From the NCBI GenBank assembly GCA_963701185.1, contig OY969569.1, positions 615,486 through 665,547 on the forward strand: a stretch of DNA of 50,062 nucleotides, read 5' to 3'. Made by a program: the position numbers and the translations under genes. Source of the stretch: Candidatus Gottesmanbacteria bacterium (GTDB lineage: Bacteria > Patescibacteriota > Microgenomatia > UBA10105 > UBA927). Of the stretch, positions 3,001 to 43,633 are shown piece after piece (position 1 is the stretch's first letter; each line of letters opens with the position of its first letter). The notes beneath the pieces are model-generated. The model was given only the letters and a program-made list of their open reading frames with translations, was not told the origin of the DNA and did not search any database.

Positions 3001-6000
3001 GATATCAATGGAGGCCGCGGCATCAGCGGTATAGCGCAGGGCCAACTTCGAGATACCGCCGGAGATAATCTTCAGCGCTTCCGTTCCGGCGGCAGATTCG
3101 GCGGCAATGGTACCGGTGACCTGCAATTTCGATGTCGGTGCCGTGGTGCCGATCCCCACCAGGCCGGACGCGGTGATGCGCATCTGTTCCGTGGCCCCGT
3201 TGGTGGTGAAAAGAAGGGCATTATTGGTTTGCATCGTCAGGTTGGTGGTGCCGGAGAGAGAGTTCGTCGTCCCCAGGGTGAGGGTCCCGGCCGTGGAGGT
3301 GAGGGTGCCGGAGGCTTTGATATTCCCGGTGACATCCAACACTTCCGAAGGCGCGGTGGAACCGATCCCCACCCGCCCGTTGGTGGTATCAATATCCAGA
3401 ACTGCAGTTCCTGCTGCATTGTTGAACTGATAGGCTGTCGTGGTATTGGTAGACCGGGAGAAGGTTAATCCGCCGAGGGCATCCACGGCTCCCAGGACGG
3501 TTCCGGATGAGCTCTGCCACTCCTGAAGGTTGGCGGATTGTCCGGAGAAGCCTTTGACAACGAGGGCCGGGAGGGAAGCAAGACCGGAGTTGAGGGTGGA
3601 GGTGGATTCCACACTCAGGCCTCCCAGACCCGTGGTGGAGTTGGTAATGGCCAGGGTGGTACCGGCGCCGGAGGAACTGAAGAGGGCCAGATTATCCACG
3701 TAGACGGTCTTCCCTGCTTTGACCCGGACCCCGTAGTTTTTGGCACTTGTCACCCCGGTGAGAGTGGAGGAGAGTTTGTACCAGCCATTGCCCGCGGACG
3801 TATAGGTGGTGGTCAGGGCGGTGGCGGACACATCACTGAAGAGCTCGACATCCGCCGAGGTGACCGCCGCACCGGTCGTATATGCGTAGGCGGTGAGGTT
3901 GTAGGAAGACGTATCCGGCAGGGTGACACGTTGGGTGTAGGCATTGTCGTTGGTGCCGGCAACCAGTTTGAGCGAGGCGGTTCCGGCATATGGTATGGTT
4001 GTATCGCGTGTTGCCGTCAGATCCACATCCGGCAGCCCGGTGGTATATTCCCCTCCCGTCCCCCGGGCAAAGAGGGTAAAATTATCAAACGTATTGCCGG
4101 AATAAGTGGAAACAGTCCATGTTTGGTGTTAGTATTGGCCGTCATCGTTAACTCTGCTCCGACCAGGGCATTGTTGTAGTAAACCCGAAGTTTGGTACTC
4201 GTCCGGCACGAGACCCGGAGCGTCGCTCCGGCAACGTAGGTAGAGGCGGTGGATTGTTTAATTGGTGTAGACTCCGGCGACGGCTTCATCCACTTTCACA
4301 TTCGTGCCATCATGGTACACAATGATGAAGTTGGCAGGAGAGCTTGTTGAATCCAAATTCGTTACCAGTCCTGCCTGAGTCCCAGCAGTCATCGTCACAT
4401 TCGCATCAGCAATCACATCAGCATCACTGGTTGCGACAGTGGAGAAAAGGGAGGAGAGGGTGAGGGGTTTGAGGGTAACATTATCAACTGTGCCACCAAA
4501 TCCATCTAATGCTTGTAAAAGTAGGTTTGTATTTGATGTGCCAGATCGACCAGTTCTTACTACTGCCCCGGTTGATGTAGAAAATGGGAAACTACCAAGT
4601 CCTGCGAAAATATATAATTCTCCAGCAGTGCGTGTCATGTCGGTTGTAAACTGGTACCAAGTCCCACCAGTTACAATTGAAGATTGCGTCATATTATTGC
4701 CAGCACCTGCTCCTGCAGTTGCAATTCCTGCACCGATTGTCCAATTTGCATCGTGTGTCCACACCGTATCTGAATCAAAAGTACCGTTTACAACAACATC
4801 ATTTCCAATCGTCGGTGTAATAGAAAGAACTCCCCCCGCCACTGCTCCGCCGGTGATGGCGAGAGCGGAGGTCGTTTGGGAATCAGGCCCGCTGGTTTCC
4901 GTCGTCGTTGCCCCCGGAGTCCCGAAAGTCGAATATGCCAATGGTGTCGGGAGCCAAGTGGAGGTGGGGATATGGAGGTAGTCAACTAAAGTTTGGGTTG
5001 TATTTAGACCATATAAAAGAGAAGCAGGATAGAGAGTTGCCGTATTTCCCGTACTCCCAATCCAGTTCAATTTCCAACCAGTTCCGTCATTTAGAAATAC
5101 ATAGTTTCCCGTAGAACGTAATACATTAGCTATTTTATAGGTAGTGTTGTATGCGGTATTTGCCGTTAAGATTGTACTGCCATTTGCGACTGCATAGAAA
5201 CCAGACGTCGAGGATGGTGTATAGAGATAACCCGCAGAGGCAAAGTTTGCAAAGCTTGTTGGATTACTTATATTTGACCATCCATGCACTGAAAATATGT
5301 TTCCAGATGGTCCTGTTATTGCATCCGTAATCATCGTCTTTCCAGCAACACGAGTAACACCACTATAAAGCAACCTCGGATCACCAAGAACACCACTACC
5401 AGCAGAGAAATTAGCTAAGCCAGATGATATTGATAACTTTCCTGTCACATCCGTCACCGTTCTCACTCCTCCCGTGGGTTCGGCTTGGGTACCGTCAAGG
5501 TTGGTAGTGATGAGGAAGTTGGTAAAGCTATTACTTGCGTACGTACTAAATAATCCCTGCAACGTGTTGTTGACAATACCTGCATCAGAAATCGTTTGAT
5601 CAGCTCCGATTTGCGCGCCGTTGTAGATGAGTTTATAGACATTCCCTACTTTCGCTACTTTCAGCGTCGCTCCGGCAACATAGGCAGCGGCGGTGTTAAT
5701 GAGGGAGGTATATGTCCCCCCCACATTTTTATCCAGGTGAACACTGGTTCCGTCATGGTAGGCAATGACAAAGTTGGCGGGAGTACTGGCTGAATCCAGA
5801 TTAAGAACCAGTCCTGCCTGTGTTCCTGCCGTCAGCGTCACCCCGGCAGACATAATCTTATTCCCCGTCGCCTCGGCGACCGTGGAGAAAAGGGAGGAAA
5901 GGGTGAGGGGTTTGGCGGAAACATCGTCCATCCTGCTTTCCAATCCAATCGTATTTAATTGATTTGTAGTTTGAAAGCGTGAAGTAGTCGAAGTCGCCCT

Positions 6001-7797
6001 CCCTGTTATGATTTTCTGCGTCCAGCTTGTTGATGAGTTAATAAGGGTTTGACTCAACCCCTCAAATGAATTATTTGCCGTTATTTTCTTTAACCAAACC
6101 GATGCAGTATACCAGGTTCCCACCACGGTTGTCGTATTTTGAAGAGCTATTCCATAGTTTGCTGCCCCGTTAGTAACTGATAAACTTTGAGAACCGCTTC
6201 CGCCCGTTCTTTCATCGGCTACTCCAGCAAGTGTAGCCGAGGCGGCAGCCGTCCAGTTATTAGGCGGATTTCCCGTTTCCATATCCCCATTTGTTAACAA
6301 CTCACTCCCCAGCGCTGGTGTAATCACGCCACTATTTGTCAGTGTTGAAACGCCGGAGACCAGGGTCGTCGGGGCGGCGGTGGTAAACTGGTCCAACAGG
6401 GTATTGGTATTCCACCCGCCGGTCGTAATATCCGTGTCAAAGGTGCCGTTGGTAAATTTATTGACGGAAGAGGCGCCGGGGACATCCAGCGTTGCTCCCG
6501 ATCCCGTCCACTTCATCGCCAGTTTGGCCGCATCGGCCGTATCCGTGAGTTTTAATCCTTCGACTCCGCTTGCGACTTTTGCGGCCATGTCCCCCACGAC
6601 GGTGAGGGTATTGGCGGGAGCCGTGGTCCCGATACCCACACGGGAGTTTGTGGTATCAAACGAGAGAATATTGGATATATTTTTGGTCGTGAGGACCGCC
6701 GTATCAACCAGGGTGAGATTGCCGGTTGTATCAACCGAGGCCACGATGGTCCCGTTATGGCCGTAGATGGTTAAGGGGGTATCCGTGACCGGGGCATTCA
6801 CGGCACCGGAATACCCCAAGACGATATCCCCATCCTCGTCCATCAGCGCTTTCTGATACCCGGCAATGGCAAACGCAAGGAGCTGTCCGTTGGCAACCGA
6901 CGTCGTCGGATTAATGAGGACCGATGCCTGGGCAAGCGTACTGTCGGTAGGCGCATACGTAAACGTGGTCTGGCCGGAAAAAATCTGGGACAAATTTGAG
7001 TGGAGATTTGCCACAAGCAGATTATCAAACCGTTTGCCCGCGGACCCCAAATCACTGCCCAAATCCGTATCAGGCAAGATGTCGTGCCCGTTGGTAATCG
7101 TCGCATTTCCGAAGGTGAGGGTATCCATCACGACGGCGTCCGTGGTTGTCGTTAACCCGACCGTGGTGCCGCTGTCGGTCCAGCCCGAAAGCGCGTAGTT
7201 GGGCGCTTCCATATTAATGGTTACGGTTTTCCCTGTCGCGTCGGTGGTGATGGTGACTGCCCCGCTTGCGGCCAAGGTCAGCGTATCGGTATTACTTCCG
7301 GCCGCGATACTGGTTTGGCCGGACACGGCGATGGTTTTAAAAATATTCTGGGCCGCGCCGGTATCGCTGTTGGTGATTTTTAATCCATCGACGGTCATGC
7401 CGCCTCCCGCAGTTAAGGATAAAGCACCGGTACTGCCCCCTAACGATACCACGCCTGTATTTGTTATGACGGGAGTCTGACCGGTAGAGACACTCACGCC
7501 TGTCCCGGCAGTTAATCCGTGGAGAATGTTTCCTGCCGTAATGGATGCAAATGATCCGGTACTTGCAGGAGCCTCGATATCCCCGGAGACGACCAGCCCG
7601 GTATCAAACGTTGCCGTGTCTTTAAACTCTGCCGGCACATGGACGGTGAAGATGAAACTGCCGGACCCGCTGGCAATGTTTTCACCTAAAACATTTACAG
7701 ACGGCAATGACGATCGGGTAAAACCTGCGATACCGGCGACGGCCAAAATAGCCACAAATGTCCCTATTTGTCCAAGTTTTGTTTGTAATAATTTCAT
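1..7797 (-). CDS. Giant membrane-anchored fibre/adhesin-like protein C with S74 chaperone domain; 3' end runs off the window; frame broken at about 4260, 4110 and 790 in this sequence
   Basis: ORF pieces 4258-7797, 4017-4289 and 427-4026, then an S74/C-terminal part in a shifted frame to base 1. N-terminal hydrophobic anchor (IGTFVAILAVAGIAGF) then VLG motif; repeated (G/R)VGIGTTAP motifs; paralogous end-to-end with the two upstream genes. Confidence 0.75.
221..1072. repeat. Near-identical repeat of 7967-8817
   Basis: Shadow ORFs 354-668 and 8100-8414 are identical (offset 7746); sequence match seen by eye. Confidence 0.85.
495..731 (-). other. Peptidase S74 intramolecular chaperone domain (copy C)
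   Basis: DNA near-identical to copy B, which reads WENTSSIALKENFTPVDPADLL..LPLTRWNYK..HIGPTAE..; Ser and Lys spaced S+5 as in S74 autocleavage dyads. End boundary approximate. Confidence 0.8.
3120..4075. repeat. Near-identical repeat of about 18976-19931; part also repeated at about 10890-11430
   Basis: Shadow ORF pairs 3229/19085 and 3538/19394 share offset 15856; the encoded segment DLTATRDTTIPYAG..TSKLQVTG is essentially identical. Confidence 0.85.
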
Positions 7798-13700: not shown

Positions 13701-15875
13701 GTCGAGAAGAGGGAGGAGAGAGTGAGGGGTTTGACACTAAGATTATCAATCTCCATTAAATCACCCGCATTATTACCAACATAAATTCTAAGATTGGGAC
13801 CAGTTGCAGTTGTTCGGCCGGAAACGGTGAAATTAGCCCACAAACTACTTGTTGCGGGATATAGAGCAGGAACCATGTTCCCCCCATATATACCTGATGA
13901 AGAATGTCCCGTCCATTTTGCTGCGTAAGTTAGCATGAACCAAGTATTAGCTGTTGTTGTCCATGCCCAATATGCACTTCCACTCACACCTGACCCCGGA
14001 TAGGCAAGACGTATATTGTATGAACCGGTGTTTGGTGCACTTGCATCAGATGATAGTGTTGGAGCGGGAGACCCTTGAGAAAACCATCCGGTTGTTGCAT
14101 TTGCTTCATTTCCATTTGGATCGGAAGCTGCATTTGCGGTAGTATAAAATTCACTCCCCAGCGTTGGGGTAATCACGCCACTATTTGTCAGTGTTGAAAC
14201 GCCGGAGACCAGGGTCGTCGGGGCGGAGGTCGTGAATTGGTCATTGAGAGTGTAGCCGTTCCAGCCGGTCAGGTCGATTTCAAAACCGGTATTAGTCATG
14301 GTACTGGCAGACATATCAAGGGTTACCCCGGTACCCGTCCACTTCATCGCCAATTTGGCCGCATCGGCCGTATCCGTGAGTTTTAATCCTTCGACTCCGC
14401 TTGCGACTTTTGCGGCCATGTCCCCCACGACGGTGAGGGTATTGGCGGGAGCCGTGGTCCCGATACCCACACGGGAGTTTGTGGTATCAAACGAGAGAAT
14501 ATTGGATATATTTTTGGTCGTGAGGACCGCCGTATCAACCAGGGTGAGATTGCCGGTTGTATCAACCGAGGCCACGATGGTCCCGTTATGGCCGTAGATG
14601 GTTAAGGGGGTATCCGTGACCGGGGCATTCACGGCACCGGAATACCCCAAGACGATATCCCCATCCTCGTCCATCAGCGCTTTCTGATATCCGGCAATGG
14701 CAAAACCCAACAATTGGCCGTTGGCAACCGACGTCGTCGGATTAATGAGGACCGTTGCCTGGGTATTCGTTGTATCGGTGGGCGCATAGGAGAAGGTGGT
14801 CTGGCCGGAAAAAGCCTGGGAGGAATTGGAATTGATATTGGCAACCCACACGTTATCAAACCGCAGGGCATTGGACCCCAAATCACTGCCCAAATCCGTC
14901 CCGGGAAGAAGGGATTTTCCGTTGGTAATCGTCGCGTTTCCGAAGGTGAGGGTATCCATCACCACCGTGTCCGTGGTTGTCGTTAACCCGACCGTGGTTC
15001 CGGTTTTTGTCCAACCGGAGAGGGTGTAATCCGGGGTATCGGCATTGATGGTGAGCGTTTTCCCTGTTGCATCGGTGGTGAGGGTAATGCCCCCGCTTTG
15101 GACAACGGTGAGGGTGTCGGTATTACTTCCGGCGGCAACACTGGTTTGGCCGGATACCGCGATGGTTTTAAAGATATTCTGGGAGGTTCCCCGATCGCTG
15201 TTGGTCACTTTCAACCCGTCGACGGTCATGCCGCCTCCTGCAGTCAGGGAGAGGGCGCCGGTTGAGCCGCCCAGAGACAGGACACCGGTGTTGGTTACCG
15301 TCGGAGTCTGGCCGGTGGAGACACTCATCCCCGTTCCTGCCGTCAGTCCATAGAGGATATTGCCTGCCGTGACCCGGGAAAATGATCGCGGAGCTCTGGG
15401 CAGCCTGAACATCTCCGGAGATGATCAACCCGGTATCAAACGTTGCCGTGTCTTTAAACTCTGCCGGCACATGGACGGTGAAGATGAAACTGCCGGACCC
15501 GCTGGCAACGGTGTCGCCGAGGACCGTTGCGGGGGTTTCGACCGGGGGGATAGTATGTTTTATTCGTATCATCCCTCCACCAAGGAAGAGTAAAACAAGA
15601 CCAAGGGAAACAAGAATCACCTTTGTCATTCCCGGCTTGACCGGGAATCCGCCTTCTGTTTTCTTTACAACCAATACCGATCCCCGCCTTCGCGGGGATG
15701 ACAAACCGTGCGAGGCAGAATTTCTGAGTTCTTCGATCTGCTCCGGGGTATACCGGCGCTGGTTGCCGAAAGTCCGCTGCGGGATGACCCGCCCCGCCTC
15801 TTCCCACCTCCGAAGGGTTTTTGTGGAGATGCCGAGGATCCGCGCCGCATCGTAGATCGATAAAAGTTTTGTCAT
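7794..15875 (-). CDS. Giant protein B: MerR-HTH, TM, fibre/adhesin-like repeats, S74 chaperone; frame broken at about 15387 and repeatedly in 9425-10480
   Basis: ORF pieces 15168-15875, 10472-15412, 10148-10426, 9821-10048, 9499-9762 and 7794-9425 are collinear with the paralogues; total span 8082 nt is a multiple of 3; ATGA overlaps at both ends. Confidence 0.72.
8240..8477 (-). other. Peptidase S74 intramolecular chaperone domain (copy B)
   Basis: WENTSSIALKENFTPVDPADLLTKISRLPLTRWNYKANPDTVTHIGPTAEKFYEIFG. End boundary approximate. Confidence 0.82.
15009..15837. repeat. Near-identical repeat of 22149-22977 (MerR-HTH to start of fibre)
   Basis: Offset 7140 throughout, with only scattered substitutions. 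Confidence 0.9.
15390..15875 (-). other. MerR-type HTH plus TM N-terminal segment of giant protein B
   Basis: LLSIYDAARILGISTKTLRRWEEAGRVIPQRTFGNQRRYTPEQIEEL, then TM VILVSLGLVLLFLGGGMI and VLG motif. Confidence 0.85.
15624..15703 (-). repeat. TGTC-tagged REP doublet (80 bp) in frame inside giant gene B
   Basis: Minus strand TGTC-ATCCCCGC(GAAG)GCGGGGAT-spacer-ATTCCCGG(TCAAG)CCGGGAAT-GACA; translated as LSSPRRRGSVLVVKKTEGGFPVKPGMT. Confidence 0.9.
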
Positions 15876-21800: not shown

Positions 21801-23030
21801 CCATCCTCGTCCATCAGCGCTTTCTGATATCCGGCAATGGCAAACGCAAGGAGCTGTCCGTTAGCAGTCGAGGTGGTGGGATTGATAATCACCGACGCCT
21901 GCGAGAGTGTCGTATCGGTGGGCGCATAGGAGAAGGTGGTCTGGCCGGAAAAAGCCTGGGAGGAATTGGAATTGATATTGGCAACCCAGAGATTATTAAA
22001 CCGTTTGCCCGCGGACCCCAAATCACTGCCCAAATCCGTATCAGGCAGAAGATTATGGCCATTGGTAATGGTTGCACCCCCGAACGTGATTCCGTCTACC
22101 ACGACCGCATCCGTCAGTGTCGTGAGACCCACGCTGGTACCGCCGTCTGTCCAACCGGAGAGGGTGTAATCCGGGGTATCGGCATTGATGGTGAGCGTTT
22201 TCCCTGTTGCGTCGGTGGTGAGGGTAATGCCCCCGCTTTGGACAACGGTGAGGGTGTCGGTATTACTTCCGGCGGCAACACTGGTTTGGCCGGACACGGC
22301 GATGGTTTTAAAGATATTCTGGGAGGTTCCCCGATCGCTGTTGGTCACTTTCAACCCGTCGACGGTCATGCCGCCTCCTGCAGTCAGGGAGAGGGCGCCG
22401 GTTGAGCCGCCCAGAGACAGGACACCGGTGTTGGTTACCGTCGGAGTCTGGCCGGTGGAGACACTCATCCCCGTTCCTGCCGTCAGTCCATAGAGGATAT
22501 TGCCTGCCGTGACCCGGGAAAATGATTGCGGAGCTCTGGGCAGCCTGAACATCTCCGGAGATGATCAACCCGGTATCAAACGTTGCCGTGTCTTTAAACT
22601 CTGCCGGCACATGGACGGTGAAGATGAAACTGCCGGACCCGCTGGCAACGGTGTCGCCGAGGACCGTTGCGGGGGTTTCGACCGGGGGGATAGTATGTTT
22701 TATTCGTATCATCCCTCCACCAAGGAAGAGTAAAACAAGACCAAGGGAAACAAGAATCACCTTTGTCATTCCCGGCTTGACCGGGAATCCGCCTTCTGTT
22801 TTCTTTACAACCAATACCGATCCCCGCCTTCGCGGGGATGACAAACCGTGCGAGGCAGAATTTCTGAGTTCTTCGATCTGCTCCGGGGTATACCGGCGCT
22901 GGTTGCCGAAGGTCCGCTGCGGGATGACCCGCCCCGCCTCTTCCCACCTCCGAAGGGTTTTTGTGGAGATGCCGAGGGTTTCGGCGGCATCCTGAATGGA
23001 GAGAAGCGTATCGACAGTATATGAATTCAT
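15872..23030 (-). CDS. Giant protein A: MerR-HTH, TM, fibre/adhesin-like repeats, S74 chaperone (about 2385 aa if the single +1 break near 22527 is removed)
   Basis: ORF 22308-23030 (HTH, TM) overlaps ORF 15872-22552 (2226 aa, intact); the junction aligns to the unbroken N-terminus of paralogue C. Confidence 0.8.
16320..16555 (-). other. Peptidase S74 intramolecular chaperone domain (copy A)
   Basis: WENTSSIALKENFTPVDPADLLTKIARLPLTRWNYK..HIGPTAEKF. End boundary approximate. Confidence 0.82.
22530..23030 (-). other. MerR-type HTH plus TM N-terminal segment of giant protein A
   Basis: LLSIQDAAETLGISTKTLRRWEEAGRVIPQRTFGNQRRY, then the same TM helix as copy B. Confidence 0.85.
22764..22843 (-). 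repeat. TGTC-tagged REP doublet (80 bp) in frame inside giant gene A
   Basis: Same sequence as 15624-15703. Confidence 0.9.
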
Positions 23031-23068: not shown

Positions 23069-23920
<852 letters not shown>

Positions 23921-23926
23921 TCTTTG

Positions 23927-24002
23927 TGTCATTCCCGCGTAGGCGGGAATCGGTATTGGTTTTATTGAAGAAGGCGGATTCCCGGTCAAGCCGGAAATGA
24001 CA
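23927..24002 (+). repeat. TGTC-tagged REP doublet (76 bp)
   Basis: TGTC-ATTCCCGC(GTAG)GCGGGAAT-CGGTATTGGTTTTATTGAAGAAGGCGG-ATTCCCGG(TCAAG)CCGGAAAT-GACA. Confidence 0.9.
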
Positions 24003-24010
24003 AGAAAATC

Positions 24011-24352
24011 ATGCTCCGTCATTATTATGTATACATAATGGCAAATAATAGACCGACGTTATATGTCGGTGTAACAAATAGTATTGAAAGAAGATCAGTT
24101 CAACATAAATATAAATTTATCGATGGGTTTACAAAAAAATATAATCTTTCAAAACTTGTATATTTTGAACATTATACTGATGTAAAAGAAGCGATCAAAC
24201 GGGAAAAACAATTGAAACATTGGAATCGGAGTTGGAAATTAAATTTGATACAAAAGATGAATCCTGCATTTGAGGATTTATATGATAAGCTGATATTAGG
24301 CGGGATAAAACAGAAGGCGGATCCCCGCCTTCGCGGGGATGACAAGCAATAA
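24011..24352 (+). CDS. GIY-YIG nuclease family protein (small stand-alone UPF0213-like type)
   Basis: YYVYIMAN..TLYVGVTNSIERR..QHK..FTKKYNLSKLVYFE..AIKREKQLKHWNRSWKLNLIQKMNP; the last codons DPRLRGDDK are the REP hairpin. Confidence 0.9.
   Translation: MLRHYYVYIMANNRPTLYVGVTNSIERRSVQHKYKFIDGFTKKYNLSKLVYFEHYTDVKEAIKREKQLKHWNRSWKLNLIQKMNPAFEDLYDKLILGGIKQKADPRLRGDDKQ
24307..24344 (+). repeat. Single REP hairpin with linker at right end of the GIY-YIG cassette
   Basis: AAAACAGAAGGCGG-ATCCCCGC(CTTC)GCGGGGAT-GACA. Confidence 0.88.
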
Positions 24353-24354
24353 TT

Positions 24355-25790
24355 ATGATTCACAGTTTTGATTTTTGCGTTAAAGAAACACATGATGTCG
24401 GCGAGGTCGTGCAGGTACATAGCTTCCTTGTGAGCGTATCGGGTTTGACCGGCGGGACAATCGGCGAAGGGGTCACCTTTGAAACCGGAGCCCACGGCCG
24501 CATCATGGCCCTTGCCCGGTCAACCACCGAAATCCTCGTCCTGTCACGCTCCATCATGAAACCCGGTACGCGGTGTTCCCGAACAGGCAAACTTATCTCC
24601 GTTTCCTGCGGAACCGGGCTCTTGGGAGAAGTCATCAACAGCATGGGGCACCTTCTGTCCACCGATAAAGCTGCCAGCCGTGAAACCGAGAACCGCCCGA
24701 TCGAAGCGTCCCCCGTCGGCATGACGGGCAGAATGCCGGTCGACACGTTTTTGGAAACCGGCATTGCCGCGATTGACTGCATTGTCCCCATCGGCCGCGG
24801 CCAGCGGGAACTGGTGATCGGCGACCGGACCACCGGCAAAACGCATGCGCTGCTGCAAATTGTAGCCACACAGGCGAAGATGGGTACGGTGTGTATCTGG
24901 GCGGCAATCGGAAAACGGAAGTCGGATATCAAAGCAGTCGAAACATTTTTAACACAAAACGGGGCCATGAAAAACACGCTGATTGTCGCCGCTGATTCGT
25001 ATGCGGCGCCGGGCGAAATATTTTTAGCGCCGTACACCGCCATGACACTCGCTGAGTATTTCCGGGATACGGGAAAAGACGTGCTGTTGGTTTTGGACGA
25101 CCTGACCACCCATGCAAAATATTACCGTGAAATTTCCCTCCTGTCCGGCCAATTTCCCGGGCGCGAATCCTACCCGGGGGATATTTTTCACGTTCATTCG
25201 AAACTGCTGGAACGCGCCGGATCGTTTGACATCCATAAAAAGCCGGTCACCATCACATGTCTGCCTGTTGCCGAAAGCGCCGGCGGCGACATGGTCGGGT
25301 ATATCCAAACCAACCTCATGTCCATGACCGACGGGCATCTGTACTTTGACAGCGACATGTATTTTCGCGGGATCCGTCCGGCCCTTAACGTCTTTTTATC
25401 CGTGACGCGCGTGGGCCGGCAAACCCAAACGCCGCTCCTTCGGGATATCGGCAAAACCGCCCTGTCGACGCTCAAAAAATATGAAAATGCGCAGAGCTTC
25501 CTCCGGTTCGGGCCGGATATCTCCCCCCAACTCCAGGAAGTTATCAAACTGGGAGATCACATTACCGCATTTTTAGATCAAACCGGATCATGGAGCATGG
25601 CGGATTCTTTAGCATCGGTGTTATTTGCCCTTATCACCGTGCACGCGTGGGACGGGACAAACGGCCGGGGTATCGCGGAGCGTTTTGACAAAGACGCAGC
25701 ATTTCAAACAACAATCCGGAGCCTGGCTGCCCGCGCCACATCGCTTGAAACACTCACGGCCGCAGTACAAAAGGCCAAACTAACAGTCAT

Positions 25791-25794
<4 letters not shown>
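24355..25794 (+). CDS. atpA: F1 ATPase alpha subunit, divergent, shortened at N- and C-termini
   Basis: GRGQRELVIGDRTTGKT, YREISLL..PGRESYPGDIF..HSKLLERA, TNLMSMTDGH, RPALNVFLSVTRVG. Confidence 0.92.
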
Positions 25795-28018: not shown

Positions 28019-28094
28019 CAATTTTCAATTTTCAATGATTCATTGACCAATTGTTCATTTATTGAAAATTGATAATTGAAAATTGATAATTGAT
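28019..28094. repeat. AT-rich imperfect 7-bp repeat array with inverted halves, between atpD and atpC
   Basis: CAATTTT CAATTTT CAAT... then ATTGAAA ATTGATA ATTGAAA ATTGATA ATTGATA. Confidence 0.75.
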
Positions 28095-32793: not shown

Positions 32794-33588
32794 TTAAAAC
32801 ACAAGCGTTTCGCGCAGGACGAGCCAGACAAATTCGGGGATGGCCAGCTGACGGCGGATGCGCCGGGGCTCAAGAAGTAACCGCCAGAACCATTCGAGAC
32901 CCAGGGAACGCATCCAAACCGGCGCCCGCGGCAGACGGCCGGAGATAATATCAAATGATCCGCCGACTGCCATAAAGATAACTCCATGCACATCCCGCGA
33001 AAGCCGCTGGATAAAATATTCCTGTTTCGGCGGCCCCAGGGCGACGAAGACTATTCGGGTACCTTCACGTATAATTTTACGGGCCAACCGTTCAAAATAT
33101 ATTTTCTCATTTGAATTATGAATGATGAATAATGAATTATGAATTTCAATTTCTGGTCCATCTTCTGCCCAGGAATCCTGTAGTAAATTATACTTTTGAC
33201 GTAAGCACTCGAGTGTCTCCACTGCCAAATTATCCCGACCTCCTATAAGTCCTATCGGGACGTGACATTTTTCGGCACGTTGAACGAGGTTCTCCATAAA
33301 CTCTACACCCGGAATTGGTTGTACCATACGGTTTTTTGTCAATATAGTACTTGCCCACACGACGCCGACCGTATCGGGGAGCGCTATATCGGCCCGATTT
33401 AAAATATCTGCAAAAGAGGGGTCATGCCTCGCGCGGACCAGCTGTTCGGTGTTCGGCGTGAAGATTTTGAGTGATTTTTGACTGGTTTTTCGTTCTTGAG
33501 ATAAATACTTCTGAATTTCCTCTAGGATTTCATTTTTAGAAGCATTTGTAATCGATATTCCCAGTATTTTTACCGCATTTAATCTCAT
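32794..33588 (-). CDS. WecB/TagA/CpsF family glycosyltransferase
   Basis: IFTPNTE, LPDTVGVVWAS, VFVALGPPKQE, VGGSFD..G..RAPVWMRSLGLEWFWRL..EPRR. Confidence 0.9.
   Translation of the reverse strand: MRLNAVKILGISITNASKNEILEEIQKYLSQERKTSQKSLKIFTPNTEQLVRARHDPSFADILNRADIALPDTVGVVWASTILTKNRMVQPIPGVEFMENLVQRAEKCHVPIGLIGGRDNLAVETLECLRQKYNLLQDSWAEDGPEIEIHNSLFIIHNSNEKIYFERLARKIIREGTRIVFVALGPPKQEYFIQRLSRDVHGVIFMAVGGSFDIISGRLPRAPVWMRSLGLEWFWRLLLEPRRIRRQLAIPEFVWLVLRETLVF
33112..33153. repeat. 7-bp TGAATTA-type array in frame inside the WecB/TagA gene
   Basis: TGAATTA TGAATGA TGAATAA TGAATTA TGAATTT; encodes EIHNSLFIIHNSN. Confidence 0.7.
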
Positions 33589-33606: not shown

Positions 33607-33703
33607 AGCACTTAGTACTGAGAACTTAGAGCTTGGCGCAAATGAACACTTTTTTCCGTACCTAATTCTGAATAATGAATCATGAATTATGAATTATGAA
33701 TAA
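33607..33703. repeat. Two intergenic 7-bp arrays
   Basis: AGCACTT AGTACTG AGAACTT AGAGCTT (33607-33634) and TGAATAA TGAATCA TGAATTA TGAATTA TGAATAA (33669-33703). Confidence 0.75.
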
Positions 33704-33749: not shown

Positions 33750-34805
33750 CTATTTTCTTGCGACTGTCCTTTTATATAGGTCTATATTTTCCAGCGCAAC
33801 TCCGGTCCCCCGCACAACGCAGAGCAAAGGGTCTTCCGACACATGACAGACAACGCCGGTCATGTGGGTCATGAGTTTGTCAAAATTCCGAAGGAGACTT
33901 GTGCCGCCCGCCATGACAATCCCCTTGTCAATAATATCTGCGGCCAATTCCGGCGGCGTTTCTTCAAGGACTCCTTTCACCGCAACGATGATTTGGTGCA
34001 GGGTCGGGGTAATGGCTTCTGAAATTTCACCGCTCGTAAGTTCCACCATGCGCGGCAACCCCGACACCGTATCCCTGCCGCGGACCTCCATAGATGTCAT
34101 CCCCGACTTGATCGGGGATCCGCCGATTCCCGCCTTCGCGGGAATGACAACCGGGAGAGCATCTCCTATGGTCATTTTTATCGTCTCTGCCATCCGTTCC
34201 CCGATAATCAGGTTATATTTTTTCTTGATGTAATTGAATATCGCCTCATCCAGTTTGTTGCCCGCCACCCGTGCGCTCTTGTGAACGACGACCCCGCCCA
34301 GGGATATCACCGCGGCCTCCGTTGACCCGCCGCCGACATCAACAATCATGTGTCCCGAGGCCTGGGCGATGGGAATTTTGGCGCCGATGGCTGCCGCAAG
34401 CGGCTCTTCGATAAGATACGCAACATTGGCGCCGGCAGAGAGCGTGGCATCCAGAACTGCCCGGCGCTCGACCTGGGTGACGCCGGACGGCACGCAGATC
34501 ATGACTTCGGGTTTAAAAATACGGTTGCGGCCGACTACTTTATCGATAAAGAAGGAAAGCATTGCCTCGGTAATCCGGTAATCGGCAATCACGCCGTCGC
34601 GCATCGGACGCGTCGCCATGATATTGCCGGGGGTCCGCCCCAGCATTTCCTTGGCCTCGTTGCCCACGGCCACCACGCGGCCGTCATCCAGGGTTATGGC
34701 CACCACCGTCGGCTCGTTGACGACAACACCCGAGCCCGCCAGCCACACGAGGGAATTTGCCGTCCCTAAATCTATGCCGATTCTTTTACGCCACTTGTTA
34801 AACAT
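33750..34805 (-). CDS. mreB: Rod shape-determining protein MreB/Mbl with in-frame REP insertion
   Basis: IGIDLGTAN, RPMRDGVIAD, EEPLAAAIGA, VDVGGGSTE, AGGTSLL. Confidence 0.96.
   Translation of the reverse strand: MFNKWRKRIGIDLGTANSLVWLAGSGVVVNEPTVVAITLDDGRVVAVGNEAKEMLGRTPGNIMATRPMRDGVIADYRITEAMLSFFIDKVVGRNRIFKPEVMICVPSGVTQVERRAVLDATLSAGANVAYLIEEPLAAAIGAKIPIAQASGHMIVDVGGGSTEAAVISLGGVVVHKSARVAGNKLDEAIFNYIKKKYNLIIGERMAETIKMTIGDALPVVIPAKAGIGGSPIKSGMTSMEVRGRDTVSGLPRMVELTSGEISEAITPTLHQIIVAVKGVLEETPPELAADIIDKGIVMAGGTSLLRNFDKLMTHMTGVVCHVSEDPLLCVVRGTGVALENIDLYKRTVARK
34095..34149 (-). repeat. TGTC-tagged REP doublet (55 bp, minimal spacer) inside mreB
   Basis: TGTC-ATTCCCGC(GAAG)GCGGGAAT-CGGCGG-ATCCCCGA(TCAAG)TCGGGGAT-GACA; reads VIPAKAGIGGSPIKSGMT. 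Confidence 0.9.
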
Positions 34806-40553: not shown

Positions 40554-40951
40554 TGACCCCTGATGACATTCGCCAGCACATAGAACTGCAGATCGTGGAT
40601 CTTATCAAAAAGAAACTCGCCGATGGCTCGATGACCGAAGAGCGTGCCCAACAGGCATCACAGATCGTCTTGGATACGCTGACGCCCGGCATGGGCTATG
40701 AGGAGTTGTATCAGGCCGTGGGCAAACTTGATGACGTGGTACAGGAACTGGCGCCGGTCGTCCTCCCCTTGATGCAGCAATATGAACGGGAGATCGTCAA
40801 GCCGATCCAAAAAAATGTGACGGAACTTATTATGCAGGGACAATATGACGCGGCAACCAATCTCGCCAAACAAGCCATCGGGCAGGATGTGAAGCTTGAA
40901 TACGTCGGAGCAGGAAAACCGAGTATGTCAATTTCCGTGAGATCTTTTTGA
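40553..40951 (+). CDS. Hypothetical helical protein
   Basis: 132-aa ORF with plausible composition and a matching promoter. Confidence 0.7.
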   Translation: MTPDDIRQHIELQIVDLIKKKLADGSMTEERAQQASQIVLDTLTPGMGYEELYQAVGKLDDVVQELAPVVLPLMQQYEREIVKPIQKNVTELIMQGQYDAATNLAKQAIGQDVKLEYVGAGKPSMSISVRSF

Positions 40952-41470
40952 GGGACGACCGATTATCGCCCGATGGATATCATCGGTCCATTCAAGGATA
41001 TTACCAACTGCGGGAACAATAAACTCTGTCAATTCATCAACTTTCTTCCCTACCTTGTCGACTTTCTTCTCTATCCCATCAACTTTTGTTTCGACGGCAG
41101 AAATCCGTTTATCGACGTTATCAACTTTTGTTTCGACGGCAGAAATCCGTTTATCGACGTTATCAACTTTTGTTTCGACGGTAGAAATCCGTTTATCGAC
41201 GTTATCAACTTTTGTTTCGACGGTAGAAATCCGTTTATCGACGTTATCAACTTTTGTTTCGACGGTAGAAATCCGTTTATCGACGTTATCAACTTTTGTT
41301 TCGACGGCAGAAATCCGTTTATCGACGTTATCAACTTTTGTTTCGACGGTAGAAATCCGTTTATCGACGTTATCAACTTTTGTTTCGACGCGCGCAACAT
41401 CTTTTTTAACCGGTTCAAGTTTCTCTTCCACGAGAGAACCAATATTTTGAAGATCTTTTTTCGTTAACAT
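40928..41470 (-). CDS. Coiled-coil protein with seven 14-aa repeats
   Basis: (VETKVDNVDKRIS[T/A]) x7; MLTKKDLQNIG N-terminus; promoter-supported start. Confidence 0.8.
   Translation of the reverse strand: MLTKKDLQNIGSLVEEKLEPVKKDVARVETKVDNVDKRISTVETKVDNVDKRISAVETKVDNVDKRISTVETKVDNVDKRISTVETKVDNVDKRISTVETKVDNVDKRISAVETKVDNVDKRISAVETKVDGIEKKVDKVGKKVDELTEFIVPAVGNILEWTDDIHRAIIGRPSKRSHGN
41078..41390. repeat. 42-bp tandem repeat, 7 full units plus a partial unit
   Basis: ATCAACTTTTGTTTCGACGG(C/T)AGAAATCCGTTTATCGACGTT. Confidence 0.95.
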
Positions 41471-41505
41471 GATTTCACTGTACGTCGTGAAAACTTGCGA
41501 GTCAA
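41470..41505 (-). promoter_or_regulatory. Putative promoter, leaderless start
   Basis: TTGACT-N17-TACAGT-N6-ATG. Confidence 0.65.
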
Positions 41506-42931: not shown

Positions 42932-43633
42932 ATGGGATTTCTTCTTCTGTTATTTGCTGAACTTTTCTTTCTCTTTTTCCTTTCCCAACGGCTCACGCAA
43001 TCGGTCTTTGACCTGTGCCTCCTTCTTTTCCGCGCCCGGTCGGTGGCAATCACAATTATTACGATCATTAATTTCCCCGGTACCGTTATCCATGAGCTCT
43101 CGCATCTGTTTACCGCTGAAGTGTTGGGGGTGCGGACCGGAAAACTGACCCTTGTTCCCGAATCCATACAATCGGATGAAATAAAAGCGGGCAGTGTGAT
43201 GATCGCCCAAACTGATCCATTCCGGCGCTATCTCATCGGCCTTGCGCCGATGGTCACCGGGTTGATTACTATCTCTGCCCTTTCCTATGCATTATTCATG
43301 ATTCATTATTCATTATTCACCTACGGTATTTTGTATCTCCTGCTTGCCGTATCCAACGCCATGTTTTCTTCGCCCGAGGATCTTAAAGGGTTCCTTCCGT
43401 TTATCGTGACATTGGGTATTATGGCTGCGGCCGCGTATATAGCCGGCTTCCGGATCGGTATCACAGGCCCGGCGCTTTCCGTCGCCACACAGATTTTGGA
43501 TGCGCTGACCAAAAGTTTGGGGATCGTCCTGGCCATCAATATCATCGGGATTATTCTGACGAAGCTATTGATTGCTCTCACGGAAAAACTCACGCGGAGA
43601 AAAATATATCATAATTTCAAAGCTAAGCTTTGA
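42932..43633 (+). CDS. M50-like membrane metalloprotease family protein
   Basis: PGTVIHELSH (HExxH), IGLAP, PEDL, several TM segments. Confidence 0.7.
   Translation: MGFLLLLFAELFFLFFLSQRLTQSVFDLCLLLFRARSVAITIITIINFPGTVIHELSHLFTAEVLGVRTGKLTLVPESIQSDEIKAGSVMIAQTDPFRRYLIGLAPMVTGLITISALSYALFMIHYSLFTYGILYLLLAVSNAMFSSPEDLKGFLPFIVTLGIMAAAAYIAGFRIGITGPALSVATQILDALTKSLGIVLAINIIGIILTKLLIALTEKLTRRKIYHNFKAKL
43294..43321. repeat. 7-bp ATTCATT array in frame inside the M50-like gene
   Basis: ATTCATG ATTCATT ATTCATT ATTCACC; encodes FMIHYSLFT. Confidence 0.6.

Follow-up and report, generated by a model that had tools for sequence, protein, structure and literature searches.

The ATP-synthase locus and its hairpins

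The window, by which is meant the whole 50,062-nt stretch of DNA analysed, carries a small gene for a GIY-YIG protein (ssn hereafter) that is set between inverted, GC-rich hairpins within an ATP-synthase operon (Table 1). Spacing is tight on both sides, with the stop codon of the upstream gene lying 6 nt ahead of the left hairpin tag and the atpA start 10 nt past the right one. Pfam GIY-YIG (PF01541) matched residues 5-78 of the protein at E 2.7e-13, with no second domain above the Pfam cut-off; neither the nuclease nor the upstream protein had a match in NCBIfam. The GC content of the ssn core is 28% versus 51% for the whole window, and the initial annotation of an apparently intact, AT-rich GIY-YIG gene inside the ATPase operon is borne out, the gene lying between the c-subunit-like gene and atpA.

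Table 1. Features of the ATP-synthase locus and of the nuclease-free doublets in the window
Feature	Position	Strand	Remarks
SRM doublet, 81 nt	15624-15704		B hairpin, spacer, A hairpin; inside MerR-like ORF 15168-15875 (-)
SRM doublet, 81 nt, identical	22764-22844		inside duplicated MerR-like ORF 22308-23030 (-)
Left neighbour	23108-23920	+	270-aa membrane protein, ATP-synthase c-subunit-like C-terminus (JGI names of homologues)
Left terminal hairpin, A-type, NTS-like	23927-23951	+	TGTCATTCCCGCGTAGGCGGGAATC; to 23954 TGTCATTCCCGCGTAGGCGGGAATCGGT; tag outward
B-type SRM hairpin	23969-24003	-	AGAAGGCGGATTCCCGGTCAAGCCGGAAATGACA; tag on - strand, adjoining gene; 5' leader
ssn-like gene	24011-24352	+	single-domain GIY-YIG protein, 113 aa, ORF intact
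ssn core	24011-24298	+	codons 1-96; codons 97-113 encoded by right hairpin
Right terminal SRM hairpin	24312-24344	-	AGAAGGCGGATCCCCGCCTTCGCGGGGATGACA; tag outward
ssn stop codon, TAA	24350-24352	+	6 nt past right tag
Right neighbour, atpA (ATP synthase alpha)	24355-25794	+	Pfam ATP-synt_ab, E 8.6e-65
Back-to-back doublet, 55 nt	34095-34149		in frame inside mreB 33750-34805 (-)
SRM doublet, 77 nt	45223-45299		A hairpin, spacer, B hairpin; inside lepA/EF4 43640-45496 (-)

Residues Y8, Y18 and E65 of the protein are invariant in homologue alignments A1 and A2, R28 and H32 vary little or not at all, and comparison with the orthologue in the related locus L161 gives a dN/dS of 0.098, indicating purifying selection. 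An AF2 model shows one compact domain (residues 1-95, core pLDDT >88) followed by a disordered end (residues 102-113, pLDDT <50), and the fold neighbours found by Foldseek are UPF0213, Slx1 and UvrC N-terminal domains, UPF0213 and Slx1 being nearest. About 17-18 residues of the tail (..GGIKQKADPRLRGDDKQ) come from the sequence of the right hairpin, and are read as hairpin-encoded because members of the family are typically 94-96 aa long. The ORF does cross the right hairpin and stop beyond it, as was first noticed; a further idea, that such read-through is a trait of the family, is ruled out, since 44 of 50 homologues terminate ahead of the hairpin, and this unusual arrangement is peculiar to the clade of the window.

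The two ends of the cassette form an inverted repeat (I1) with arms at 23927-23951 and 24320-24344 that are 88% complementary. Terminal inverted repeats had been claimed from the sequence, and they are present, at 25 nt rather than the 24 nt first given. The left A hairpin is identical to the Neisseria NTS consensus in 24 of 28 nucleotides, a level of agreement found in none of the shuffled sequences, folds as ssDNA at -8.9 kcal/mol (z -4.8) and recurs at the equivalent point of the orthologous L161 cassette. The right hairpin likewise agrees with the NTS at 24 of 28 positions, contains a match to the published SRM pattern (24317-24344, minus strand) and folds at -9.7 kcal/mol. Between the left A hairpin and the gene lies the B hairpin, which matches the SRM pattern at 23974-24002 on the minus strand and has a weak fold (-5.0 kcal/mol, z -1.45). 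Together the A and B hairpins make up the doublet initially described to the left of ssn, which spans 77 nt; the B hairpin, however, is missing from the otherwise collinear leader of L161, and is a secondary insertion of approximately 33 nt into the ssn 5' leader, gained since the split from L161. Neither the window nor L161 has a direct repeat at the junctions that could represent a target-site duplication, and no transposase is visible in the sequence, confirming what had been noted of the window.

Matches to the published motifs far exceed chance in the window. The SRM pattern used, HGTCWYN(0-2)YYVSBRHN(0-5)WNVSBRGN(0-2)RNCYNB, has six sites versus 0.32 +/- 0.61 expected from 100 dinucleotide shuffles, and the NTS consensus used, CGTCATTCCCGCGMAVGCGGGAATCYRG, has six matches with at most six mismatches versus none in 30 shuffles. 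These six NTS-like hairpins have 23-25 of 28 nucleotides in common with the Neisseria NTS. Five of them, all A-type, fail the SRM pattern by a single position of the 3' tail (ATCGG, where the pattern has ATCYN), and the sixth, at 24317-24344, fits the SRM pattern as well.

Probable affiliation with the Ssn nucleases and their repeats

A nuclease family with such repeats was described recently by Chenal et al. 2025 (Nat Commun 16:2388; PMC11893778), who named the enzymes Ssn (cd10448) and the repeats NTS/SRM; a literature search for later Ssn work gave only this paper. The Ssn proteins consist of a single GIY-YIG nuclease domain; they bind NTS/SRM hairpins (CGTCATTCCCGCGMAVGCGGGAATCYRG) solely as ssDNA and cut just upstream of them, and this ssDNA-specific, site- and strand-specific cleavage has been established for four members, from N. 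meningitidis, N. elongata, N. wadsworthii and Wolbachia, none of which cut dsDNA (PMC11893778). At least one flanking repeat accompanies 71% of Ssn homologues and repeats on both sides accompany 42%, and ssnA is present in 81% of genomes with >200 SRM (PMC11893778). The sole function demonstrated in vivo, in Neisseria only, is to restrict transforming DNA that enters as a single strand and contains the repeat, knock-out of ssnA raising transformation by NTS-bearing DNA 5-fold (PMC11893778). The same authors list Rickettsia among the SRM-rich genera and do not mention Patescibacteria (PMC11893778). The initial annotation named no established mobiliser for (C/T)GTC-tagged palindromes; its premise that they lack a known protein partner has been put out of date by this work.

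The gene and hairpins of the window resemble this system in several respects. The protein is also GIY-YIG-only, with a core of approximately 95 aa and catalytic Tyr, Tyr and Glu; the spacing from Y18 to E65 (47 residues) equals that from the YIG Tyr to the Glu of Nm SsnA (Y17-E64), and by this spacing Y8, Y18 and E65 would be equivalent to Y6, Y17 and E64 of Nm SsnA. In the hairpins a YGTCAY tag precedes the stem on its 5' side and a C follows it, and inverted repeats lie on either side of the gene, with many further copies in the genome. The window differs in its patescibacterial, Shapirobacteria-like host, in an ORF that crosses the right hairpin to yield a 17-residue tail of predicted disorder, and in the arrangement of its repeats as doublets of two types. 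Because of the architecture, the motifs and the chains of homology, the gene and hairpins most probably constitute an Ssn nuclease with its cognate SRM/NTS repeats (probability roughly 0.88).

Association of nuclease and hairpin was surveyed among relatives of the protein, of which 904 were found, with a length mode of 94-96 aa. Flanks were surveyed at 160 homologue loci from more than 15 phyla, comprising 80 genome loci and 80 metagenome loci. The genome sample is possibly biased because its 113-aa query includes the hairpin-encoded tail; the metagenome set was therefore drawn with a core-only query, and the enrichment persisted in it. Of the 80 loci in each set, 55 in the genome set and 46 in the metagenome set have flanking hairpins with outward tags. 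At distances up to 100 nt from ssn, the density of tagged hairpins exceeds that in the flanks of the same loci by a factor of 8-14 (2.7 per kb in the genome set and 1.7 in the metagenome set, versus 0.19 and 0.23 in the flanks). Six of seven control tags gave 0.03-0.2 per kb; the remaining one, ACTG, with 0.74 per kb in the genome set, owes this higher value solely to its overlap with the real tag. The hairpins are positioned 7-25 nt upstream and 4-25 nt downstream of ssn with tags outward on both sides, the tag logo is YGTCAY, and no conservation is seen in the flanks beyond the tag. Left and right stems agree within one locus and differ between genomes, a pattern seen across phyla. Homologues with 46-66% identity come from taxa that PMC11893778 gives as SRM-rich, among them Sphingomonas, Sphingopyxis and Rickettsiaceae. 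The claim that nuclease and hairpins belong together is upheld by this survey; the pairing is real, yet already known from the 2025 work.

Among 118 viral and proviral loci selected by their hairpins, only 4 carry ssn, and the inner spacing of doublets peaks at approximately 56 nt. Among five viral-locus intervals with cassette-like spacing, three contain ssn and two (L215 and L227) contain unrelated small ORFs, which are probably ordinary genes between two solo hairpins; the idea that GIY-YIG genes are the only cargo between inverted viral hairpins is not borne out. A fourth viral ssn locus (L169) has its hairpins arranged differently.

Other families with similar folds or enzymes were considered. 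The closest solved folds to the window protein are Slx1 and the UPF0213 proteins (BH0048, 1ZG2; EF2693, 1YWL). Slx1 is a structure-specific nuclease on branched DNA that, unlike Ssn, needs Slx4 and has a RING domain, whereas the UPF0213 proteins are uncharacterised and share approximately 25% identity with the window protein; no hairpin repeats are known for either. An I-TevI-type homing endonuclease was rejected on the grounds that Pfam and AF2 show no second domain and that the family spares dsDNA (PMC11893778).

The mode of action of the window protein may be envisaged from what biochemistry has established for four homologues of the family. A single strand with the order 5'-YGTCAY-stem-loop-stem-C would fold into a hairpin when ssDNA is exposed, as in incoming transforming or conjugative DNA, replication or repair. 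Ssn would then bind both the stem sequence and the C just past it, and cut a few nucleotides 5' of the tag, sparing dsDNA, RNA and the opposite strand. At this locus the enzyme is predicted to cut the top strand immediately outside 23927 and the bottom strand immediately outside 24344 and 24003. Such cleavage would most probably serve to control recombination and the uptake of DNA strands that bear the repeat. Reliance on DNA uptake is commonly assumed for the Patescibacteria. The cassette itself is an insertion in the ATP-synthase operon that was acquired horizontally and is kept by purifying selection, and read-through into atpA would presumably preserve expression of the operon.

Nuclease-free doublets in conserved genes

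Four nuclease-free doublets lie in the window, and the host reading frame stays open through all of them (Table 1). They combine two types of hairpin, A with a GNAG loop and B with a CTTGA loop, and an Rfam search of the doublets returned FtrB only, below threshold. The first 81-nt doublet is in frame, with the translation LSSPRRRGSVLVVKKTEGGFPVKPGMT, and the MerR-like genes gain 27 aa. Because the two MerR-like copies belong to segmental duplicates that are 99.7% identical, their doublets represent one insertion copied with its host segment. Thus, the four relatives first reported inside genes are indeed four copies, but the MerR pair does not reflect separate insertions. A third MerR-like copy (7329-7716), sought as an insertion-free internal empty site, was found without the entire N-terminal part.

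The doublet in mreB encodes VVIPAKAGIGGSPIKSGMT, 18 extra amino acids in a surface loop, and folds at -18.2 kcal/mol (z -4.3). This loop insert is intact, decayed or missing among homologues at 80-92% identity, and intact hairpins are also kept across lineages with saturated synonymous sites. The doublet in lepA keeps the frame open, corresponds to a gap of approximately 20 aa relative to T. thermophilus EF4 (5IMQ) and folds at -18.6 kcal/mol (z -4.5).

The location of these repeats sets the window apart from Neisseria. All of its nuclease-free copies are intragenic, versus only 2% of the NTS of N. meningitidis (PMC11893778). The core of the Neisseria dRS3 repeat (dRS3/NIME), ATTCCC-N8-GGGAAT, is the stem of the window A hairpin (ATTCCCGCGTAGGCGGGAAT); dRS3, however, is intergenic, flanks RS units and serves as a phage integration site, whereas the repeats of the window are compact intragenic doublets. 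In their mode of insertion the doublets resemble the Rickettsia palindromic elements (RPE) reportedly described by Ogata et al. in 2000: both are short palindromes placed in frame in conserved genes (here mreB, lepA and the MerR-like genes), both add a tolerated peptide loop, and no transposase has been identified. The RPE differ in being longer, about 100-150 bp, and in forming several families.

Possible mobility of the cassette and its implications

The orthologous ATP-synthase site varies among relatives. It is occupied by the ssn cassette in the window and in four relatives (L161-L164), it is held by another gene in L165, and it is empty in L166 and L167, where the c-like gene is followed by atpA after an AT-rich spacer of 36 nt; this comparison of occupied and empty sites, a check proposed at the outset, spans genomes that are only 60-73% identical in the neighbouring protein. 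One reading, put forward in the initial annotation, tentative and with the odds somewhat against it, is that the hairpin-ssn-hairpin unit is an autonomous mobile element whose non-autonomous derivatives are the doublets and solo hairpins. By analogy with RAYT and REPINs, Ssn might conceivably nick at the tags, host replication or repair might copy or re-insert the unit, and the repeats might expand in this way, a scheme that is likewise possible at best.

Several observations point in the direction of an autonomous element. The architecture of terminal inverted repeats is conserved across phyla with stems that match within a locus, the doublet spacers have sequence in common with the cassette at its 5' leader (CGGTATTGG..) and at its 3' end (AGAAGGCGGAT), and relatives show the empty site and the different occupant described above. 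The window ssn is a compositional outlier at 23 GC points below its host, the family norm being 10 +/- 4 points below. Its dS of 0.73 is lower than that of the flanking atpA (approximately 2.4), although the low value may partly reflect extreme AT codon bias. The solo hairpin gained in the leader since the L161 split, the presence, absence or decay of the mreB loop insert in close relatives, and the frequency with which metagenome contigs end beside ssn are also consistent with this reading. Chenal et al. raise the same possibility of repeat mobilisation by Ssn, and liken the NTS-ssnA-NTS layout to an insertion sequence and to RAYT/REP (PMC11893778).

Against autonomous mobility, there is no observed case of transposition, nor has an excision product or a target-site duplication been seen. 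The chemistry is also unfavourable, in that GIY-YIG nucleases hydrolyse DNA and, to our knowledge, have no strand-transfer or ligation activity. Because the flanking sites lie on opposite strands, no strand offers more than one cleavable site in a given cassette. The GC content of ssn follows that of the host (r = 0.91, 131 loci), which fits long residence over frequent transfer, and the scarcity of ssn in hairpin-bearing viral and proviral loci is unexpected for an autonomous element, although action in trans could explain it.

Comparison with known mobile systems shows the same mixture of likeness and difference. As in RAYT/REP, a small gene lies between inverted hairpin repeats that also populate the genome as doublets, and the enzyme reads a short tag 5' of an ssDNA hairpin. 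However, RAYT is an HUH Y1 enzyme with a covalent intermediate and a GTAG tag, for which both cleavage and rejoining are seen in vitro, whereas Ssn is a GIY-YIG hydrolase for which cleavage alone is seen, its genes being often multi-copy. Membership of the REP/REPIN-RAYT group was rejected, the associated protein being GIY-YIG and the tag logo YGTCAY. The IS200/IS605 elements (TnpA Y1) similarly have subterminal hairpins that are recognised in ssDNA and cut at a short sequence 5' of the hairpin, but their ends lie on the same strand and are rejoined by the transposase, while those of the window lie on opposite strands and no joining activity is known for Ssn. With insertion sequences and MITEs the cassette shares terminal inverted repeats and the occupied and empty alleles of one site, and it differs from them in having no visible target-site duplication and an enzyme without known strand-transfer chemistry.

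It is rather improbable, alternatively, that ssn is a homing-type passenger that enters pre-existing SRM doublets with the hairpins as homology arms or target; the hairpins would then owe their own spread to a different process, such as gene conversion, replication slippage or the action of another enzyme, which is just as doubtful. Free-standing GIY-YIG homing endonucleases are well known, which lends this proposal some plausibility. It would account for the canonical form of the cassette (L161, P0006), in which ssn sits at the position of the doublet spacer, between the A and B/A hairpins, for doublets that vastly outnumber the genes, as in the viral loci with their inner spacing of approximately 56 nt, and for the occupation of the same intergenic site in two species by an ssn less diverged than its neighbours. 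Classical homing, however, needs cleavage of dsDNA, which the tested members of the family spare, and Ssn is without the separate DNA-binding domain of GIY-YIG homing enzymes. Moreover, no doublet-only allele was found at any ssn-occupied site, and no other candidate mobiliser recurs by the hairpins, the cargo between viral hairpins consisting of ordinary genes.

The remaining alternative, that co-location is incidental and the hairpins are generic terminators or mRNA stabilisers beside a small horizontally acquired gene, may draw on the unrelated small genes that hairpins also flank in phage contigs and on a terminator-like alternative stem with a T-run (24332-24313, minus strand), but it is extremely improbable and is effectively refuted by the 8-14 fold enrichment over same-locus flanks, by the specific tag logo with strictly constrained orientation and distance in two independent samples, and by direct protein-hairpin binding in the family (PMC11893778), the terminator reading being rejected as well because no T-run accompanies the hairpins on the coding strand, where they are translated or otherwise read through.

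Returning to the role of the nuclease, Ssn may perhaps be the long-sought enzyme that mobilises, or at any rate maintains, YGTCAY-tagged palindromes including the in-frame insertions of RPE type. Nicks at the tags in ssDNA could, equally tentatively, trigger the copying or gene conversion of doublets together with re-homing of the cassette. If true, a mobilising Ssn would explain the persistence of hairpins in the mreB loop, the gain of a solo hairpin in the leader and the younger, AT-richer copy of ssn in the window.

The placement of a patescibacterial gene and its repeats in the Ssn/SRM system of 2025 is in itself routine. What is new is this patescibacterial member, together with the empty orthologous site, the compositional outlier, the secondary insertion of a solo hairpin, the RPE-like in-frame doublets and an mreB loop whose doublet is variable across Microgenomates. 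The system is extended to a lineage of ultra-small genomes, for which a nuclease acting on incoming ssDNA would be relevant if these organisms depend on uptake. Occupied, empty and alternatively occupied alleles, an outlier copy and the gain of a solo hairpin all bear on mobility and are lacking in the published work. SRM doublets stand in frame inside the essential genes mreB and lepA, with the MreB loop as a long-lived site of landing or retention across Microgenomates, and they link the Ssn/SRM system to the unsolved phenomenon of the Rickettsia RPE. If Ssn drives the spread of these repeats, it would represent a second enzymatic route for the propagation of REP-like repeats, unrelated to the HUH transposases.

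The nuclease gene and its probable cognate hairpins

The small GIY-YIG gene upstream of atpA (ssn) is surrounded by three GC-rich hairpins with a TGTCAT tag, of which the outer pair forms an inverted repeat of 25 nt that is 88% complementary. The initial annotation described this layout, together with four nuclease-free doublets elsewhere in the window, and the sequence bears it out.

Features of the ssn locus and nuclease-free doublets in the window
Feature	Position	Strand	Description
c-subunit-like gene (ATP synthase)	23108-23920	+	left neighbour, upstream of ssn; 270 aa
A-type hairpin	23927-23951		left of ssn; tag outward
B-type hairpin	23969-24003		left of ssn; tag adjoins start codon
ssn-like ORF	24011-24352	+	113 aa; Pfam GIY-YIG, E 2.7e-13
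Right hairpin	24312-24344		right of ssn; tag outward
atpA	24355-25794	+	right neighbour, downstream of ssn
Doublet	15624-15704		inside MerR-like gene
Doublet	22764-22844		inside second MerR-like gene
Doublet	34095-34149		inside mreB
Doublet	45223-45299		inside lepA

Literature searches worded in terms of REP elements gave no hit on a pairing of GIY-YIG nucleases with hairpins. The stem in the window, ATTCCC-N8-GGGAAT, is that of the Neisseria dRS3 repeat, and this match pointed to the work of Chenal et al. (2025, Nat Commun 16:2388; PMC11893778), who define the repeat NTS, with sequence CGTCATTCCCGCGMAVGCGGGAATCYRG, as well as a degenerate motif, SRM. SsnA of N. meningitidis (NMV_0044; 94 aa, GIY-YIG, cd10448) and three homologues bind the hairpin as ssDNA only and on one strand only, place the cut a few nucleotides 5' of the tag, and cleave neither dsDNA nor RNA; mutants Y6A, Y17A and E64A of SsnA are inactive, and the enzyme reduces transformation of N. 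meningitidis by NTS-bearing DNA (PMC11893778). SRM are found in 71% of regions around NMV_0044 homologues (on both sides in 42%), the gene is present in 81% of genomes with >200 SRM, and SRM-rich genera include Rickettsia, Wolbachia and Sphingomonas; the authors' discussion likens NTS-ssnA-NTS to an insertion sequence and compares it with RAYT/REP/BIME (PMC11893778). The nuclease/hairpin system is already known, and the window locus is very probably a further member of it.

Architecture and motifs place the window protein, with a probability of about 0.88, as an Ssn-family site-specific ssDNA endonuclease with cognate SRM hairpins. Tyr8, Tyr18, Arg28, His32 and Glu65 are invariant in the alignment with homologues, and the Tyr-Glu spacing is that of the mutated SsnA residues. 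The protein's closest relatives of solved structure are 1ZG2 and 1YWL, both uncharacterised members of UPF0213; by fold it is nearest to UPF0213, Slx1 and the N-terminal domain of UvrC. Homologues are usually 94-96 aa long, so the last ~18 residues (..ADPRLRGDDKQ) stem from translation of the right hairpin; AlphaFold models residues 1-95 with confidence and shows disorder from residue 102 onwards. This read-through is clade-specific among homologues and puts the ssn stop codon <=2 nt from the atpA start, plausibly preserving operon translation. Extrapolating from the characterised members, the enzyme would bind the hairpin folded by the strand that reads 5'-YGTCAY-stem and cut just 5' of the tag; the predicted cuts fall immediately beyond the two ends of the cassette (hairpin-ssn-hairpin), on opposite strands. 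The activity of this protein and its role in the Patescibacteria cell are inferred.

The SRM pattern matches six window sites (15624, 22764, 23974-, 24317-, 34095 and 45270-), compared with 0.32 +/- 0.61 in dinucleotide shuffles. Six hairpins, five of A-type and the right hairpin (24317-24344), share 23-25 of 28 positions with the Neisseria NTS, a level reached by none in shuffles, and their differences from it include compensatory stem changes. Every doublet combines one NTS-like hairpin with a GNAG loop (A-type) and one CTTGA-loop SRM (B-type). Folded as ssDNA, single hairpins reach -5 to -9.7 kcal/mol and doublets about -18 kcal/mol. The conserved SRM 3' tail CCGCCTTC is able to pair with GAAGGCGG of its own hairpin; at 24313-24332 (- strand) this creates an alternative, terminator-like stem followed by TGTTTTAT, in which the repeat may adopt another conformation, and the AGAAGGCGGAT tails of the doublets behave likewise. 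Rfam matches to FtrB (RF02748, Francisella sRNA B) stay below the gathering score of 66; they cover the full model length and span the left doublet (23905-24026, +; 28.8 bits) and the right hairpin (24234-24369, -; 22.4 bits), and FtrB itself may be transcribed from an SRM-type doublet.

The c-subunit likeness of the upstream protein is confined to its C-terminal ~60 residues, and its N-terminal ~200 residues have no match in Pfam or NCBIfam; the fusion is kept in 248 Patescibacteria homologues.

Pairing of nuclease and hairpins among homologues

GTCA-tagged GC-rich hairpins <=100 nt from the gene were counted in 80 homologue loci taken from species-representative genomes that cover >15 phyla. 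As the query for this set had included the hairpin-encoded tail, 80 metagenome loci were added with a core-only query, which frees the second set from this bias. Of the 80 loci in each set, 55 (genomes) and 46 (metagenomes) have hairpins near the gene. Their density there is 2.66 and 1.73 per kb, respectively, versus 0.19 and 0.23 per kb in the surrounding several kb of these loci. The flanking of homologues by hairpins, which the initial annotation proposed as a check, is evident in both sets. Six of seven control tags lie at 0.03-0.2 per kb, the seventh (ACTG) being elevated solely through overlap with the real tag.

Both hairpins have the tag outward: the upstream one stops 7-25 nt short of the start codon, and the downstream one starts 4-25 nt past the core. 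Left and right stems agree within a locus and differ from genome to genome, and conservation ends at the tag, whose logo reads YGTCAY. In the reverse direction, 4 of 118 viral or proviral loci chosen for carrying a hairpin contain ssn, in all four directly adjoining hairpins; the commonest hairpin layout among the 118 loci is a tag-outward doublet with an inner gap of ~56 nt.

Alleles of the insertion site and the question of mobility

In one relative (L161-L164; neighbour protein 73% identical to that of the window) the cassette occupies the same site in canonical form, namely A hairpin, 29 nt, gene and right hairpin. The B hairpin is absent there, so the leader of the window ssn has gained it (~33 nt). 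The site is empty in L166 and L167 (60% identity), which have a 36-nt AT-rich spacer, and in L165 (65% identity) a 23S-rRNA-IVP-family gene replaces ssn. This gene (PF05635, 123 aa; L165 1273-1644) is bordered by AT-rich repeats 'AATTTTCAATTTTCAAT / TTGAAAATTGATAATTGA', and small accessory genes seem to gather between the c-like gene and atpA. In L162, a metagenome version of the locus of the cassette-bearing relative, gene calls split atpA, directly 3' of the cassette, into two ORFs (1569-3004; 222 + 250 aa); the split may reflect a frameshift variant or an assembly error, and atpA is intact in L161 (479 aa).

Between the window and L161, ssn is under purifying selection (dN/dS 0.098) at 86% DNA identity and dS 0.73, while the adjacent atpA is 70% identical with saturated dS (~2.4). 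The GC content of ssn follows that of its host (r = 0.91, 131 loci) and runs ~10 +/- 4 points lower; the window ssn lies 23 points below its host (core GC 28% versus 51% for the window). The low dS and GC gap suggest that ssn is younger than its neighbourhood or was exchanged between lineages, though extreme AT codon bias may deflate its dS.

The initial annotation further proposed that the enzyme mobilises the hairpins, nuclease-bearing elements being autonomous and nuclease-free doublets non-autonomous. The TIR-like cassette, its leader and tail sequence shared by doublet spacers, the occupied, empty and alternatively occupied alleles, the compositional outlier status of ssn and the hairpin gained in the leader all agree with such spread; however, transposition has not been observed, plausible joining chemistry is lacking and no target-site duplication is visible in the window or in L161, and this part of the proposal appears rather unlikely. 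That ssn is a homing passenger is more doubtful still, as the family does not cleave dsDNA. Co-location of gene and hairpins by coincidence or as terminators is excluded by the enrichment statistics and is exceedingly improbable.

Intragenic doublets and other repeats

All four nuclease-free doublets are intragenic, and the host ORFs remain open across them. The two in MerR-like genes go back to a single insertion that was duplicated along with its surrounding segment (99.7% identity). The lepA insert corresponds to a ~20-residue gap relative to T. thermophilus EF4. In mreB the insert lies in the loop that joins IGDALP to MEVRGRD and is translated as VVIPAKAGIGGSPIKSGMT; in 120 homologues (77-92% identity) this loop holds an intact hairpin translation, a decayed one (MVTPTKGGV..DPSTSLGMT), unrelated sequence or nothing (IGDALVDATKDVAKMEVRGRD). 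The loop (aa 212-245; window mreB 33750-34805) is hypervariable across Microgenomates, with protein lengths of 320-407 aa (P0241-P0360). Some homologues carry a second repeated peptide (..PAPARNASARLPLTGTVGQASVAGG..) nested within the doublet, suggesting that a further repeat family inserts there as well. This intragenic behaviour resembles that of Rickettsia palindromic elements (RPE) and contrasts with N. meningitidis NTS, of which only 2% are intragenic (PMC11893778).

Other repeats are also present. Window 1-22600 comprises three tandem diverged block copies ~7.1-8.1 kb apart, encoding giant repetitive proteins (1199, 1179, 1646 and 2226 aa) that are probably surface proteins; after the last two blocks comes, in each case, a MerR-like gene with an SRM doublet. 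A tandem array at 40994-41497 (42-nt unit, ~12 copies, identity up to 99%) lies within overlapping ORFs (40928-41470, -; 40973-41467, +). AT-rich 'TGAATAATGAATCATGAATTATGAAT'-like motifs (28019-28092, 33119-33144, 33664-33702 and 43286-43319), similar to the AT-rich repeats of L165, make up a second repeat family and occur in both orientations near gene ends.

The value of the locus lies in its comparative hints on mobility and in linking SRM doublets to in-frame, RPE-like insertions in essential genes.
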